Positions 53,364-57,729 of a stretch of 64,000 bases of DNA are shown here, piece by piece. Position numbers and translations under genes: made by a program. The notes beneath the pieces were generated by a model. The model searched no databases. It saw only the letters and a program-made list of their open reading frames with translations, and was not told the origin of the DNA. Positions within the stretch are counted from its first letter, which is position 1, and every line of letters begins with the position of its first letter. The DNA is taken from NCBI RefSeq assembly GCF_003334255.1, contig NZ_QOWU01000005.1; one strand, written 5' to 3'. The DNA comes from Escherichia coli. Lineage in GTDB: Bacteria > Pseudomonadota > Gammaproteobacteria > Enterobacterales > Enterobacteriaceae.

Positions 53364-54434
53364 TTATTTAATCCGGGCCATCGCGTTTCTCAGTGCCAAA
53401 TCTGCCTCTTCCGTTATATCCAGGCTTTTCTGCAATACCGCCTCTGACCGGGTCAGTGCCTGACGTGCTGCCAGCGGTTTCCGGATATGCTCCATCGCCA
53501 GCATCGTGTCTTCATAGCCCTGCTGACGCCAGGCGTCGGTATGTGCCGATGTAAAACTGAGCAGACCGCCGCTGTTGCCACCATCACCTGCATATTTCAG
53601 CCTTTTCCGGGGACGGATCTCAAGGATTGTGGTGTCCGGAAAAGCCTGGCGATCCCATAAAGAACCGTCACTCAGATGCGTCACAATCACCATATTGCAT
53701 CCGGCATCGACCAGAGGCGTCACAGGGGTATTTCCCTGCATATTTCGCCATCCTCCCATACCACCATCACCGAACATTGTCCCCTGAACCTCACGGGGAC
53801 GGAACAGCAGGGGCAGCGCGGCTGACGCAAGCAGAGCCTCTTTCTGCTGTCCGCGGGGCAGGCTCTGGATATGCTGAAAAACGGCGTTTTTCGTGGTTCC
53901 GACACCCAGTTCAGCACGAATGCAGTCAATAATATCCTGCATGCCCCCTTCTGTGGGGTACAGCGACACATACAGCGGTAGCCCGTCTGCCAGAGCATCA
54001 GTATCAAGATAATGATCCATCAGCGCTGTCAGGGGCTCATCTGACAACAACGGCTGAGCCATCAGATTGTCAAACCCGTTGATTGTCGATATATGGCGAA
54101 GAAGCGTCGTAAGCAGTGCTCCTGCACGTCCGGGGATCTGGCAGAGGTTCATTGCCTGGAACAATTTTTTCAGCAATGAAAAGTAAACCAATCTGTTTAC
54201 CGACAGCACCTGATTATTCCCCAGATGATCCCAGAGCGCCTCCAGGCGTACGGCAGCTTCTGACAGATCGGGAGAGGCCGCGATAATGGCACCATTGAAT
54301 GCGCCAATGCTGGCCCCTGAAACCATGCTGATCTGTGTACCACACTCTGCCAGTGCCTTAACCACTCCCGCCTGATAAGCGCCCACCGCCCCGCCACCGG
54401 ACAGCACCAGCCCCGTTTTCATTTCTGTACTCAT
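53364..54434 (-). CDS. patatin-like phospholipase
   Basis: 356-aa ORF; oxyanion GGGAVGAYQAG, nucleophile elbow GASIG, catalytic DGG (FGDGGMGG); ATGA overlap with the upstream gene. Confidence 0.8.
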   Translation of the reverse strand: MSTEMKTGLVLSGGGAVGAYQAGVVKALAECGTQISMVSGASIGAFNGAIIAASPDLSEAAVRLEALWDHLGNNQVLSVNRLVYFSLLKKLFQAMNLCQIPGRAGALLTTLLRHISTINGFDNLMAQPLLSDEPLTALMDHYLDTDALADGLPLYVSLYPTEGGMQDIIDCIRAELGVGTTKNAVFQHIQSLPRGQQKEALLASAALPLLFRPREVQGTMFGDGGMGGWRNMQGNTPVTPLVDAGCNMVIVTHLSDGSLWDRQAFPDTTILEIRPRKRLKYAGDGGNSGGLLSFTSAHTDAWRQQGYEDTMLAMEHIRKPLAARQALTRSEAVLQKSLDITEEADLALRNAMARIK

Positions 54435-55336
54435 GCAGCCCCCTTCTGAAATATTTCATCGACCATACTTTCAGAGAGGCGTTCTGCAGAGCAGAGGCGA
54501 GGCATGCGAACCGGTAAGTGTTCTGCAGCCTGCGTGGTTGACCAGATCACCGGATGCTGCTCTTCACTGCACCAGTCTCCCAGCCAGTTAATCGCGTCAT
54601 GCCACTCGTTATCTGCCTGCTCCCGGCCCTGACCACCAAGCCAGTCCAGAGTGTTCAGACGCACGGTTGCACTACCGCCACTCTCCTGTGCCATCTGCGT
54701 TAATGCTTTATGTCTGAGAATATCCAGTAGCTGGTTAACCTGGCCTGTTTCGCTCTGACGTATCACATCACCAAACGCGCCCCAGCGAAGCTCTTCAAGT
54801 GCCACATAACAACGTCCGGCAGGGGAAAATGACGCATATCGCCCGGCGCTCCACCATGAGAATATCTGCTCAAGATGTAACTGCGCCCGCTGAACCTGGT
54901 CAACACGGTGGAGTTTTTCTTCAAGATGATTCAGTTTATGGTGAACCTGATCGGCCAGGGTGAGTAACTGCTCCCGCGTATCTGCGGAATAATGCGCCAG
55001 CCTGGCTGTATCACTGACCAGTGAACTGACCCTGTCGTTTACCCGGGTAATCGCGTAGTTTGTGGTGGCAAGTGACGTTGTCATCTCCGTCAGCCAGCGC
55101 AGGGACGCCTCAACGCCCTGTGCAAGCGACGCATTGATGGCATTCTGCCGTGCAGCGCCTTCGCCGGTCAGCCCCTCTTTTAAACGCCGGAAGAACGTGC
55201 GCTCTCCGGCCGTGCGGATATGCTCCTGTGCAACATCGATTCCGTTTGCGAAATCAACCACAAATTTTTCAGGAAGACAGGTGAGTACCTGACATACCCG
55301 GTTATCAGCAATTTGTTGAATAAATGGTGAAGTCAC
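54431..55336 (-). CDS. hypothetical protein, middle gene of the dynamin-patatin operon; GTG start
   Basis: 301-aa ORF between and overlapping both neighbours by 4 bp (GTGA at 55333..55336, ATGA at 54431..54434); no recognisable motif. Confidence 0.55.
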   Translation of the reverse strand: MTSPFIQQIADNRVCQVLTCLPEKFVVDFANGIDVAQEHIRTAGERTFFRRLKEGLTGEGAARQNAINASLAQGVEASLRWLTEMTTSLATTNYAITRVNDRVSSLVSDTARLAHYSADTREQLLTLADQVHHKLNHLEEKLHRVDQVQRAQLHLEQIFSWWSAGRYASFSPAGRCYVALEELRWGAFGDVIRQSETGQVNQLLDILRHKALTQMAQESGGSATVRLNTLDWLGGQGREQADNEWHDAINWLGDWCSEEQHPVIWSTTQAAEHLPVRMPRLCSAERLSESMVDEIFQKGAA

Positions 55337-57729
55337 AGCATTGTCTCCAGCTCTTCCCTCAGCGCCTTACTGTCAGTAATGAGCTCAGGAACCCTTTCAT
55401 TTAATGCCTGAAGTCGCCCGGTAAGCCGTTCCTGCGCCTGCTGATCGCGTTTATGATCTTCAGAGCTCTGAATCAGCGTGTTACGCAGTTGTTCAACTTT
55501 CTCCCTGAATGCGCAGAAAAAGGCATCGATTTCCTGGCGGACGGGCTGGTTAATATCCTGCTCAATGGATGCCTGCAGCTCCCCGAAATATGCCCGGGTC
55601 AGTGACATAACTTCCTCTCTGACCTTGTTGATATTGATCACGCTGCGACTCACATCCTCGTCATAGTTTTCCCAGCCCAGGTCACTGGTGCCAAACCATC
55701 GACAAACGGTTCCCCATACGCCACTCTGCCGACGGCGACGGGTGACGGTCTCCGTTCTTTCCTCCATAAGCGCACTCAGATTTATTTTTACCGCGAGCCG
55801 GGTCTGTAACTGGCTGACTGCCGGAAAACTGATTTTTACGGTAAAGCCCTCATCCTCCAGGCGGGCATTGATGCGACCGGCAATGTTTTCTGTGGCGTAC
55901 AGGGCCGTGCCACGAAAACCTGTTTCAATCCCGCTGACGATTTTCTCCAGCTCAGGCCGGAACTGTGCTTCAGCCTCACGGTGCAGGCTGGTCACGGTCG
56001 ATTCGATTTGCGTCATCAGTTCAAGGGCTTCCCTGCGATCACTGAATTTTATTTCGGGGCTGTCCGGGGCAAAATCTCGTTTCCTGTAATCCTCCCGGCC
56101 CTGGTTGTTGATACCGGACCATTGAGAAATTTTCCCCCATAATCCGGACTGAGACCTTCGTTGTTCTGCGTCTTCTTCCTCCAGCATTTGCTGTTCTTTG
56201 CGTTTACCGCTTCTGAAATAGTCATTCAGCTCCTCTTCCAGTGAGGTGCAGACCCCCGTCAGTAATTCCCGGGTTTTAGTATCGATCTCCTCCATGGCCA
56301 TTCTGACATCAGTGGTCATCTGCTCCTGACAGTCCGCGATTTCCCGGATATCCGCAAGCAGGCTGGTGATATGCGACTGCAGTGACTGAATGCTTTGCTG
56401 TAGCCCCTGATGGCGTAACAACAGGTATTCACTGATATTTTCTGCATTCTGCATCAGTTTTGCGGCGGCAGAGTCAACCGCCAGTGCCGCAGCTCTGGAA
56501 TGTGAGCTCTGTATGACTTCCGTTATCAGTTGATCGATAAGTGAGCCTTCCCACAGGTCTGTCGCCCCTTCAGTTGCCAGTTCACTGTCTTTACAGACGT
56601 ATTCTTTTTTCATGCAACCGAAGGCACCTCTGATAAAATCATCGACCCAGGCTTCATCAACAGGAAGGGTTCCGTTTTTCCGTAACTCATGAAGCGCACG
56701 GTTAGCCAGGTATGCCTGGCGTGAGGATCCGGGATAAACGCGGGAGGCGGGCAGCACATCGCTGTTCAGCATTGCCGGAACTTTCTGGCGTACGGCATCT
56801 GCCCCATCGCCATTGCGGTCTTTCTCATCAAATTTATTGACCAGTACAAACAGGCGGCCGGCTGATACGTCAGCAATGGCATTAAGCTCTTTACGGACGT
56901 CTTCATCCGCTTTTGAGTTCATCTGGGTGTAATCCATCACAGCCAGAACCGCAGAGGCTTTCTGCAGTTGATCCCGCATCATCACTTCCATCTGCGGTTG
57001 TCCGGCCTCATTAGGGCCGGGGGTATCCAGCAGTGTGAGTGTTCCCTGGCATGCATCCATCCCCACCAGATGGCTGAATTCCACGTCGATCACCGGCAGT
57101 TTCTGCACTTCTGCGTATTCATCAAAAGGAAATTCAGTCCCCATTGCCGCAGCAAGACGAACCAGATCGTTTAACGATGCCAGTCCGGTAAAGATTTCCT
57201 CCTCCCCGTGGTATTCATTTTTGAGCCAGCCATCATCCGTCAGAATATCCAGCAGTTCGCGGGTATCCCCGGTTTGCTGCAGGGTCTGTGCGACCTGCTG
57301 TCCTGCCGGGGTGGCGAGTTTTTCCTGCAGTGTGATTAATAAATTGCGGACAGGCTGAATATGTTCCAGATGGAGAACCGGCTCAGTTTTTCCGGGAACG
57401 TGGCGGATGAGCGTCGGTACAGAGGTCATGGGGCGGTTACGGTTAGGCAGAATTTCCTGCCCCACAATGGCGTTGATGGTGGTTGATTTGCCTGCTTTCA
57501 TCGTGCCGACAACAGCCAGCACCATCTCCCTGCGGGCGGTTTTGATTTGTTCGCCCTCCAGCTCCTCAATTCTTTTCAGTGCTTTCTGTTTATCAAAAAG
57601 CAGTCTGTTTTCGTTCTTACTGTCAGATAACACATCTGGCTCCTCAACCATTTGCCGGAGCAGATTAATGTTCAGTTGCAAAAGTCGGTCGGCTTCATCA
57701 CAAAGCAGGGCGATGTTCTTTTCGTGCAT
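55333..57729 (-). CDS. dynamin-like large GTPase
   Basis: 798-aa ORF; G1 GTMKAGKST, G3 DTPG, G4 NKFD; long helical C-terminal region; RBS AGGAAGG upstream of the ATG at 57727..57729. Confidence 0.8.
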   Translation of the reverse strand: MHEKNIALLCDEADRLLQLNINLLRQMVEEPDVLSDSKNENRLLFDKQKALKRIEELEGEQIKTARREMVLAVVGTMKAGKSTTINAIVGQEILPNRNRPMTSVPTLIRHVPGKTEPVLHLEHIQPVRNLLITLQEKLATPAGQQVAQTLQQTGDTRELLDILTDDGWLKNEYHGEEEIFTGLASLNDLVRLAAAMGTEFPFDEYAEVQKLPVIDVEFSHLVGMDACQGTLTLLDTPGPNEAGQPQMEVMMRDQLQKASAVLAVMDYTQMNSKADEDVRKELNAIADVSAGRLFVLVNKFDEKDRNGDGADAVRQKVPAMLNSDVLPASRVYPGSSRQAYLANRALHELRKNGTLPVDEAWVDDFIRGAFGCMKKEYVCKDSELATEGATDLWEGSLIDQLITEVIQSSHSRAAALAVDSAAAKLMQNAENISEYLLLRHQGLQQSIQSLQSHITSLLADIREIADCQEQMTTDVRMAMEEIDTKTRELLTGVCTSLEEELNDYFRSGKRKEQQMLEEEDAEQRRSQSGLWGKISQWSGINNQGREDYRKRDFAPDSPEIKFSDRREALELMTQIESTVTSLHREAEAQFRPELEKIVSGIETGFRGTALYATENIAGRINARLEDEGFTVKISFPAVSQLQTRLAVKINLSALMEERTETVTRRRRQSGVWGTVCRWFGTSDLGWENYDEDVSRSVININKVREEVMSLTRAYFGELQASIEQDINQPVRQEIDAFFCAFREKVEQLRNTLIQSSEDHKRDQQAQERLTGRLQALNERVPELITDSKALREELETML

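Follow-up and report, generated by a model that had tools for sequence, protein, structure and literature searches.

A mobile three-gene module of a dynamin-like GTPase, an RdcB-family protein and a patatin, preceded in an Escherichia coli island by a predicted agn43-type switch

What could a dynamin-like GTPase, an RdcB-family protein and a patatin-like phospholipase do together in a single operon? The question is raised by three genes on the minus strand of a 64,000-nt stretch of Escherichia coli DNA (assembly GCF_003334255.1, contig NZ_QOWU01000005.1; hereafter the window). A preliminary description had taken this trio for an undescribed membrane-targeting defence or toxin system. Here, we show that the trio is a self-contained, horizontally mobile three-gene module whose usual habitat is the defence islands and plasmids of Proteobacteria. 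Its first two genes are related to the regulators RdcA and RdcB and, as judged from sequence, its promoter in the window is homologous to the Dam/OxyR switch of agn43, a feature that is new in this analysis. We give a probability of about one half to the reading in which an RdcA/RdcB-type GTP-state switch gates a patatin directed against the cell itself, most likely for anti-phage defence, the whole being placed here behind an agn43-type epigenetic switch. The operon, as taken from the listing of open reading frames (ORFs) and completed by a terminator scan and by reading of the sequence, is laid out as follows.

55333..57729, minus strand: gene 1, RdcA-like dynamin-like GTPase, 798 aa, ATG start (ORF listing)
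54431..55336, minus strand: gene 2, RdcB-like (YjcZ family) partner, 301 aa, GTG start (ORF listing)
53364..54434, minus strand: gene 3, cytoplasmic patatin-like phospholipase, 356 aa, ATG start (ORF listing)
57737..57743, minus strand: Shine-Dalgarno sequence AGGAAGG, 7 nt before the ATG of gene 1 (read from the sequence)
53318..53344, minus strand: terminator-like hairpin CACCGCCTGTGGTGGTG with a T run behind it, ~20 nt past the patatin stop (terminator scan and sequence)

The start of gene 2 and the stop of gene 1 share the 4 bp GTGA (55336..55333), and the start of gene 3 and the stop of gene 2 share ATGA (54434..54431); these overlaps, the gene coordinates and the ribosome-binding site are all as the preliminary description had given them. 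In RefSeq, the products are named ‘dynamin family protein’, ‘diguanylate cyclase regulator RdcB family protein’ and ‘patatin-like phospholipase family protein’. The ratio of nonsynonymous to synonymous substitution rates (dN/dS) of the three genes ranges from 0.08 to 0.32 against the E. albertii and Pectobacterium copies. For the copy of E. coli O157:H7 Sakai, it could be computed for the GTPase gene alone (0.24), genes 2 and 3 being nearly identical there. Purifying selection thus acts on all three genes. Given these values, the Pfam E-values reported below and a gene order that recurs in 30 species-level loci, the operon is far beyond chance. Hydropathy analysis revealed no transmembrane-length hydrophobic stretch in any of the three proteins, and all three are devoid of export signals.

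Gene 1 contains a Pfam Dynamin_N domain (1.6e-17), with the motifs GTMKAGKST at aa 75-83, DTPG at 235 and NKFD at 298; its GTPase domain, of about aa 66-350, is followed by a long helical stalk. The G1-G4 motifs are invariant across 35 GTPase homologues. In the AlphaFold2 model (predicted local distance difference test, pLDDT, 77.9; predicted template modelling score, pTM, 0.65), the GTPase domain is accompanied by very long helices (aa 413-527, 565-626 and 700-797) and by poorly ordered tip segments (aa 537-550 and 633-655) beside a β-hairpin (656-699). The best Foldseek matches of this model in the PDB are Nostoc BDLP, SynDLP, IniA, mitofusins and the Campylobacter dynamin-like protein pair, with E-values down to 1e-12, and LeoA comes at rank 36. 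The Dynamin_N domain, the G1-G4 motifs and the helical stalk of the model identify gene 1 as a predicted BDLP/mitofusin-type dynamin-like GTPase.

Gene 2, in which the preliminary description had seen no recognisable motif, is in fact a full-length member of the YjcZ family (PF13990, 4.7e-70, model positions 1-272 of 272), and is 30% identical to K-12 RdcB over 281 columns. Its AlphaFold2 model is mostly helical (pLDDT 81.5, pTM 0.84), and structural searches returned no fold or solved-structure relative beyond coiled-coil noise and generic helical matches. The family is small, with 327 representatives at E ≤ 1e-3 among 1.84 billion cluster representatives.

Gene 3 matches Pfam Patatin (PF01734, 7.4e-24). 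Its oxyanion glycines (GGG, 13-15), the nucleophile S42 in GASIG (40-44) and D223 in DGG are invariant in 20 patatin homologues of 47-91% identity. The same 20 sequences keep a subfamily block, DGGMGGW...QGNTP.TPL..GC, unchanged. With its catalytic residues intact, the protein is predicted to be an active phospholipase of a distinct subfamily, and neither a signal peptide nor a transmembrane helix was found in it by hydropathy. The dynamin motifs of gene 1 and this patatin apparatus were both found where the preliminary description had located them, in agreement with Pfam. Among solved structures, the nearest relatives are PlpD, VipD and ExoU, for which the match is restricted to the N-terminal motif region. 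Full-length relatives, at 46-66% identity, occur in sequences attributed to Pectobacterium, Yersinia, Erwinia, Plesiomonas, Providencia, Vibrio, Budvicia and Pseudomonas among others. Carriage of the trio by phages was considered and dropped, a tblastn search of the patatin against 50,697 phage records having returned no match; PHROGs has no family for any of the three proteins.

The first two genes point to a precedent in E. coli K-12. Gene 1 matches the NCBIfam model of CrfC (= YjdA = RdcA; NF007368) from end to end, with 556 bits and an E-value of 1e-166, below the cut-off of 1146, and aligns with K-12 RdcA over almost its full length (33% identity, 744 columns). Gene 1 is therefore classed, on these scores, as a paralogue and not an orthologue of RdcA. 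The K-12 pair combines the same two families, likewise ordered and overlapping by 4 bp, and the GTPase motifs are shared, including the residues that were mutated in RdcA (K82 and T103, which align with K81 and T102 of gene 1). In K-12, RdcA forms dimers, associates with RdcB and engages the MASE1 membrane domain of DgcE, thereby activating this diguanylate cyclase (PMC6510439). The variant K82A, which does not bind GTP, is fully active and T103D, which does not hydrolyse it, is inactive; the authors therefore proposed that GTP acts as an inhibitor and that RdcA/RdcB sense a fall in GTP (PMC6510439). The paralogy of genes 1 and 2 with RdcA and RdcB is, at the level of alignment, a concrete mechanistic template for the trio, which by analogy probably shares the logic of a GTP-state-dependent complex acting on a membrane-associated enzyme. 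However, the trio adds a coupled patatin that the K-12 pair does not have, and is without a known link to DgcE. It also belongs to a separate clade located on islands and plasmids, whereas the pair is chromosomal and mostly next to proP. The term ‘undescribed’ in the preliminary description consequently holds only in part: the trio is uncatalogued, but its genes have been flagged in one paper (PMC12922286), and two of them have characterised paralogues.

Upstream of gene 1, the preliminary description had recorded the ribosome-binding site and overlooked a second type of signal, formed by the following elements.

57791..57828, minus strand: OxyR-consensus site ATCGATCGTTACTATCATATCGATCGTTATAAACGAT enclosing three GATC (Dam) sites, homologous to the agn43 (flu) operator
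57854-57859 and 57831-57836, minus strand: candidate sigma-70 promoter, -35 TTGCGT and -10 TAGAAT separated by a 17-nt spacer, assigned by positional homology with agn43 and cah

The 217-bp spacer 5′ of gene 1 contains three copies of a AACGATCG(A/T)T repeat, hence three GATC sites, and aligns with the K-12 yeeP-flu and Sakai yfjP-cah (ECs_1396) regions across the agn43 regulatory core. In all three sequences the -10 element is TAGAAT and GATC-I starts 11 nt past the start of the -10 element. The site in the window fits 16 of the 20 specified positions of the OxyR tetramer consensus, which is more than the agn43 (14) and cah (13) sites do; the next best site in the 64 kb scores 13. A consensus scan also gave an overlapping alternative promoter candidate, TTAATA-18-TATCAT (57840-57811). 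With three GATC sites within one predicted OxyR site just past the promoter, the region is by its sequence an agn43-type switch. As in agn43, it forms a homologous block 3′ of a yeeP/yfjP GTPase gene. On the other hand, it precedes a cytoplasmic enzyme operon and not an autotransporter, with a leader of about 95 nt versus about 220 nt in agn43. In agn43, Dam methylation of the GATC sites blocks a single OxyR repressor site, giving rise to phase variation (PMC2909390). Expression of the trio is therefore predicted to be phase variable, with heritable ON and OFF subpopulations.

The switch was found upstream of the trio in the window and in E. albertii, and the window-type junction is carried by about 1979 complete E. 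coli genomes. It was not found upstream of 26 other trio loci, including the copy in the Sakai island SpLE1. Because it is absent from other genera and from the SpLE1 copy, we regard the switch as a local acquisition of Escherichia and not as a part of the module.

How far does the module itself extend? A scan of species genomes with a YjcZ alignment identified 79 loci, which were annotated by ORF calling and phmmer and fall into three groups.

Trio group, 30 loci: GTPase, YjcZ and a patatin directly downstream; gamma- and betaproteobacteria, patchy distribution
Chromosomal pair group, 41 loci: RdcA/RdcB alone; mostly Enterobacteriaceae
Other pairs, 8 loci: two genes only; Buttiauxella, Cedecea, Mangrovibacter and others

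A patatin directly follows the pair in 30/30 trio loci, with intergenic gaps of at most 18 nt and a predominance of 4-bp overlaps. In some of these loci the GTPase gene is cut by a contig end, and the remaining genes keep their order. The taxa include E. albertii, Pantoea, Erwinia, Budvicia, many Pseudomonas, several Burkholderiales, Chromatiales, Gallionella, Aquaspirillum and Oceanospirillales, as well as two metagenome-assembled genomes (MAGs) labelled Firmicutes and Synergistetes. Hence, the co-occurrence and synteny check proposed in the preliminary description gave a clear answer, the three genes behaving as one unit across genera, often next to known defence genes. Among the chromosomal pairs, proP lies 0.7-2.1 kb downstream in 32 of 41 cases, and most of the remaining 9 stop at a contig edge. 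Effector swapping behind RdcA/RdcB-like pairs was also considered and rejected: each ‘intermediate’ pair is a genuine operon of two genes, and the gene that follows it lies on the other strand.

A midpoint-rooted neighbour-joining tree of the concatenated GTPase and YjcZ proteins, calculated with no outgroup, separates a trio clade of broad taxonomy from a pair clade made of Enterobacteriaceae only. The Budvicia trio is the deepest branch among the trios and, judged by eye, the pair clade looks vertically inherited. Because the trio clade is broad and patchy, the tree, within the limits of its midpoint rooting, suggests an older, mobile trio from which RdcA/RdcB was derived as a domesticated pair.

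The GTPases of the two clades also differ in sequence. Those of the trios carry an insertion of 30-53 residues, compared to 3-17 residues in the pair clade, which is neutral to basic within a strongly acidic protein and contains up to 7 aromatic residues. They conserve in addition the motif T-RRRR-x-SG-x-WG-xx-C-x-WF-x-T-x-DWGWE-x-Y, of which RdcA has lost the basic and Trp/Cys part. In gene 1, two tip elements are rich in Trp (about aa 523-540 and 660-690), and the AlphaFold2 model places the insertion and the RRRR/Trp motif in tip loops (pLDDT <50) and in the β-hairpin of the BDLP-like stalk. From their composition and position alone, these trio-specific elements are plausible membrane contacts. 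Escherichia GTPase alleles differ mainly at aa 351-400 and 451-700 (window ~55630-56679), that is, in the stalk and tip, and are almost invariant in the GTPase domain; this clustering could mean either that a surface used for sensing or contact is under diversifying selection or simply that a loop is loosely constrained. In a MAG labelled Synergistaceae (L044:1290-6356), two dynamin modules are fused in tandem in a trio GTPase of 1688 aa, an arrangement like that of B. subtilis DynA and a hint that the GTPase works as a dimer.

Within E. coli, at least 80% of a 4.7-kb query spanning the trio is present in 2444 of 5426 complete genomes (~45%), in up to 5 places per genome. Forty-four plasmid records match the YjcZ-like protein, and a trio variant with a YjcZ-like protein of 62% identity (tblastn) occurs on plasmids of Klebsiella, Enterobacter and E. 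coli. On the Enterobacter hormaechei plasmid pRHBSTW-00114_3 (L090, 6009-10991), the GTPase gene is shortened, and an IS1 element lies immediately against its 5′ end.

The order Dynamin_N/YjcZ/Patatin is identical in four taxonomically separate contexts whose surroundings are all different. The Pseudomonas trio is flanked by BrxR-WYL and SIR2 genes, the Vibrio trio by brxL/pglZ of a bacteriophage exclusion (BREX) system and an adjacent WYL gene, and a metagenomic trio by McrBC, WYL and PDDEXK genes; the fourth context is that of Pectobacterium. Among 149 non-redundant ORFs lying within 4.8 kb of trio loci, the commonest Pfam domains are WYL (8 ORFs) and WCX (5), followed by YeeP-like GTPases and integrases. 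When 40 large neighbours within 5 kb of 19 trio loci were scanned with PADLOC, a known defence component was identified in 8 of the 19: type III and type I methyltransferases, BrxC, an SNF2 helicase, MADS components, a DRT reverse transcriptase and WYL proteins. This neighbourhood is an association, not a proof of function.

Two Pseudomonas loci have a BrxR-like gene in divergent orientation upstream of the trio, at distances of 149 bp and 618 bp. BrxR-like/WYL regulators recur beside trios of Pseudomonas and Vibrio (L031:4374-5246, L034:769-1644, L022:13050-13922, L003:3752-4624 and L004:5682-6650), one of them directly upstream on the same strand. Where the agn43-type switch is absent, such genes may be the native regulators of the trio.

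In the window, the horizontally acquired island surmised in the preliminary description turns out to be of the CP4-44 type, lying between the cob genes and tmaR. Around the operon, the order is a YeeP-like GTPase, the trio, two small ORFs, DUF932, an antirestriction gene, yeeS (RadC-like), yeeT, cbeA and cbtA, so that the trio sits in the slot held by flu-yeeR in K-12. The cbtA toxin ORF is shortened to 87 aa (48946-49209), being frameshifted according to the record of strain ECCRA-119, whose trio region is identical to the window, and the cbeA antitoxin gene is intact (49298-49666). YeeP/YfjP-like small GTPases, DUF932, RadC and CbtA/CbeA also accompany the trio in Pseudomonas and Pectobacterium (L003:11915-12889, L007:423-1298; window 57947-58858). 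Since these companion genes are the same, CP4-like backbones with the trio as cargo are not limited to Escherichia.

The two small ORFs (52545-53336 and 52119-52529, minus strand) have signal-peptide-like N-termini and lie directly past the terminator-like hairpin. The one of 136 aa matches phrog_8968 of PHROGs, a family of unknown function (E 2.6e-45), and the other has no match there. As members of the module they were rejected, because they are missing from trios elsewhere. The hairpin may nevertheless be leaky, given that ‘five genes’ are co-upregulated on one island of E. coli MP1 (PMC12922286), and read-through into the two ORFs is possible.

The Sakai island SpLE1 presents another arrangement (L091, 2801-11358): a yfjP GTPase gene, an agn43-type switch and the Ag43-like adhesin gene ECs_1396 (cah), then the trio ECs_1397-1399. 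The trio starts 110 bp downstream of ECs_1396, with a proximal upstream sequence unrelated to the switch. Since its YjcZ and patatin are nearly identical to those of the window and its GTPase is only 91% identical, the Sakai locus is a recombination mosaic.

Does the trio belong to a known defence system? The preliminary description had left it outside Eleos and the cyclic-oligonucleotide-based anti-phage signalling system (CBASS), and the profile searches bear this out. With PADLOC, gene 1 gives a LeoBC match with an E-value of 8.6e-5 restricted to the P-loop region (aa 29-89), and the patatin matches CBASS phospholipase effectors marginally (1e-4); against the CapV model NF041079, it scores 18.3 bits for a cut-off of 200. 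Eleos resembles the trio in having bacterial dynamin-like GTPases and in residing in defence islands, and its LeoA is a structural neighbour of gene 1. However, it has two or three GTPase genes instead of one, and neither a YjcZ partner nor a phospholipase. Like CapV of CBASS, VipD and ExoU, the trio patatin is cytoplasmic, with an intact Ser-Asp dyad, and probably stays inactive as long as no partner activates it. In contrast to CBASS, the operon contains no CD-NTase cyclase gene and no other nucleotide-signalling gene. The Legionella patatin VipD, which is activated by the GTPase Rab5, is a precedent for a GTPase-activated patatin, and ExoU is activated by ubiquitin.

Two islands of E. coli MP1 carry homologous dynamin/RdcB-family/phospholipase operons, which were reported as a ‘putative dynamin phage defense system’ with no functional test (PMC12922286, 2026). 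These operons showed strong, condition-independent expression differences between clones, together with ‘induction in lysogens’, and the authors found no literature link between phospholipases and bacterial dynamins; Ag43 and phase variation are not mentioned (PMC12922286). Differences between Ag43 ON and OFF clones have been described as a pitfall (PMC3764049), and, with a predicted switch of this type before the operon, a heritable ON/OFF difference between the compared clones is possibly an alternative explanation of the MP1 result. Another paper merely lists the trio genes, on an O118 island (PMC13182975).

In the mechanism that we consider, a soluble or peripheral BDLP/mitofusin-type GTPase and its RdcB-like partner would form a complex, as known for RdcA/RdcB. 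The K-12 pair docks on the membrane domain of DgcE and activates it when RdcA is nucleotide-free; the trio pair would instead gate the activity or the membrane recruitment of the patatin. The trigger could be a fall in GTP or a perturbation of membranes or nucleotides, for example during phage takeover. Assembly of the GTPase on the inner membrane would then occur via its trio-specific basic and Trp-rich tip loops, and the patatin would hydrolyse the cell's own phospholipids, leading to abortive infection or growth arrest. In the CP4-44-type island of Escherichia, cells with the operon in the agn43 slot would be split by its agn43-type promoter into ON and OFF subpopulations. As in the preliminary description, defence, toxicity and a control of the lipase by the GTPase are inferred.

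A wider formulation can be put forward tentatively. The trio would then represent a new anti-phage or abortive class, in which a self-directed patatin is licensed by a dynamin-like switch that senses GTP and has an RdcB-like cofactor. The Ag43-type switch would provide a bet-hedge confined to a subpopulation, and RdcA/RdcB would be a domesticated offshoot in Enterobacteriaceae that lost the lipase and gained DgcE.

Several points weigh against a GTP-gated, self-directed lipase with a defence role. The sole characterised relatives, RdcA/RdcB, are signalling proteins and not immune ones, and RdcA is reported to be soluble, while the proposed membrane-binding loops are low-confidence regions of the model. 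PADLOC v2.0.0 (2023) has no model for the trio and gives marginal hits only, and 11 of the 19 scanned loci lack a recognised defence gene among large neighbours within 5 kb. The plasmid copy that was inspected sits among IS1 and metabolic cargo. A prevalence of ~45% in E. coli with up to 5 copies, as well as the many truncated patatin variants in this species, are not required by a pure defence function. The distance between GATC-I and GATC-II is 18 nt here and 19 nt in agn43 and cah, so that OxyR control might differ. Finally, a literature search on dynamin, patatin and defence returned no functional test of the trio, the genes being mentioned in two genomics/transcriptomics papers.

High prevalence and multiple copies in E. 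coli would fit a non-lethal function, such as membrane maintenance or stress protection. The GTPase would seal or remodel the inner membrane, as proposed for B. subtilis DynA, and the patatin would be a source of lysolipids or clear away damaged lipids; the outcome would be delayed lysis or tolerance to envelope stress, and maybe phage protection at the population level. The BDLP/mitofusin/IniA-like fold is that of fusion- or repair-type dynamins, one homologue is a tandem double-dynamin fusion like DynA, and DynA-type protection is the rationale cited for the MP1 operons (PMC12922286). This reading is nonetheless doubtful: the locus contains no element for envelope sensing or targeting, and the association with defence islands and WYL genes is more typical of immune effectors. 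Patatin effectors comparable to this one, such as CapV of CBASS, ExoU and VipD, are usually lethal once activated.

The position of the trio behind an agn43 switch in the agn43 slot, and 110 bp past the adhesin gene ECs_1396 in SpLE1, raises another question: could it be a phase-variable accessory of colonisation or virulence tied to Ag43-type adhesins, for instance in vesicle or surface remodelling, that is co-regulated with agn43 or replaces it in CP4-type islands? LeoABC of enterotoxigenic E. coli has been proposed to have such a role in outer-membrane-vesicle or surface remodelling, and LeoA is among the structural matches of gene 1. We consider this unlikely, as the link to agn43 is confined to Escherichia, the trio is conserved without adhesins in environmental Pseudomonas, Burkholderiales and Chromatiales, and export signals are absent from all three proteins.

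An addiction module that stabilises its island or plasmid, with a patatin toxin restrained by the GTPase/RdcB-like pair and freed on loss of the element, is improbable. The operon encodes no labile small antitoxin, its putative toxin is the last gene of 4.4 kb encoding large, stable-looking proteins, and many E. coli copies have a truncated patatin or GTPase with no obvious compensation. The toxin-antitoxin-rich islands and the 44 plasmids that carry the trio, and a tight translational coupling that resembles the stoichiometric control of toxin-antitoxin pairs, argue for it. Lastly, that the trio regulates a diguanylate cyclase through cyclic di-GMP, with the patatin as an unrelated passenger, is hardly credible: the RdcB-family name of gene 2 and the GGDEF domains in 2 of the 149 neighbour ORFs stand against a gene 1 score well under the RdcA equivalog cut-off, a clade apart from the mostly proP-linked pairs, an invariably present and coupled patatin, and trios far outside Enterobacteriaceae, to which the surveyed pair clade is confined.

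If the reading of an RdcA/RdcB-type switch gating a self-directed patatin is true, the trio would be a distinct immune or toxin module, in which a dynamin-type GTPase gates a lipase without a nucleotide second messenger, carried by close to half of the complete E. coli genomes as well as by plasmids of Klebsiella and Enterobacter. In addition, the RdcA ‘GTP sensor’ and the YjcZ/RdcB family, of which little is understood, would gain an evolutionary origin and a second output that can be tested. The classic Ag43 epigenetic switch would have been re-used for a cytoplasmic enzyme system, and ON and OFF states differing from clone to clone could pass for regulation in transcriptomes.

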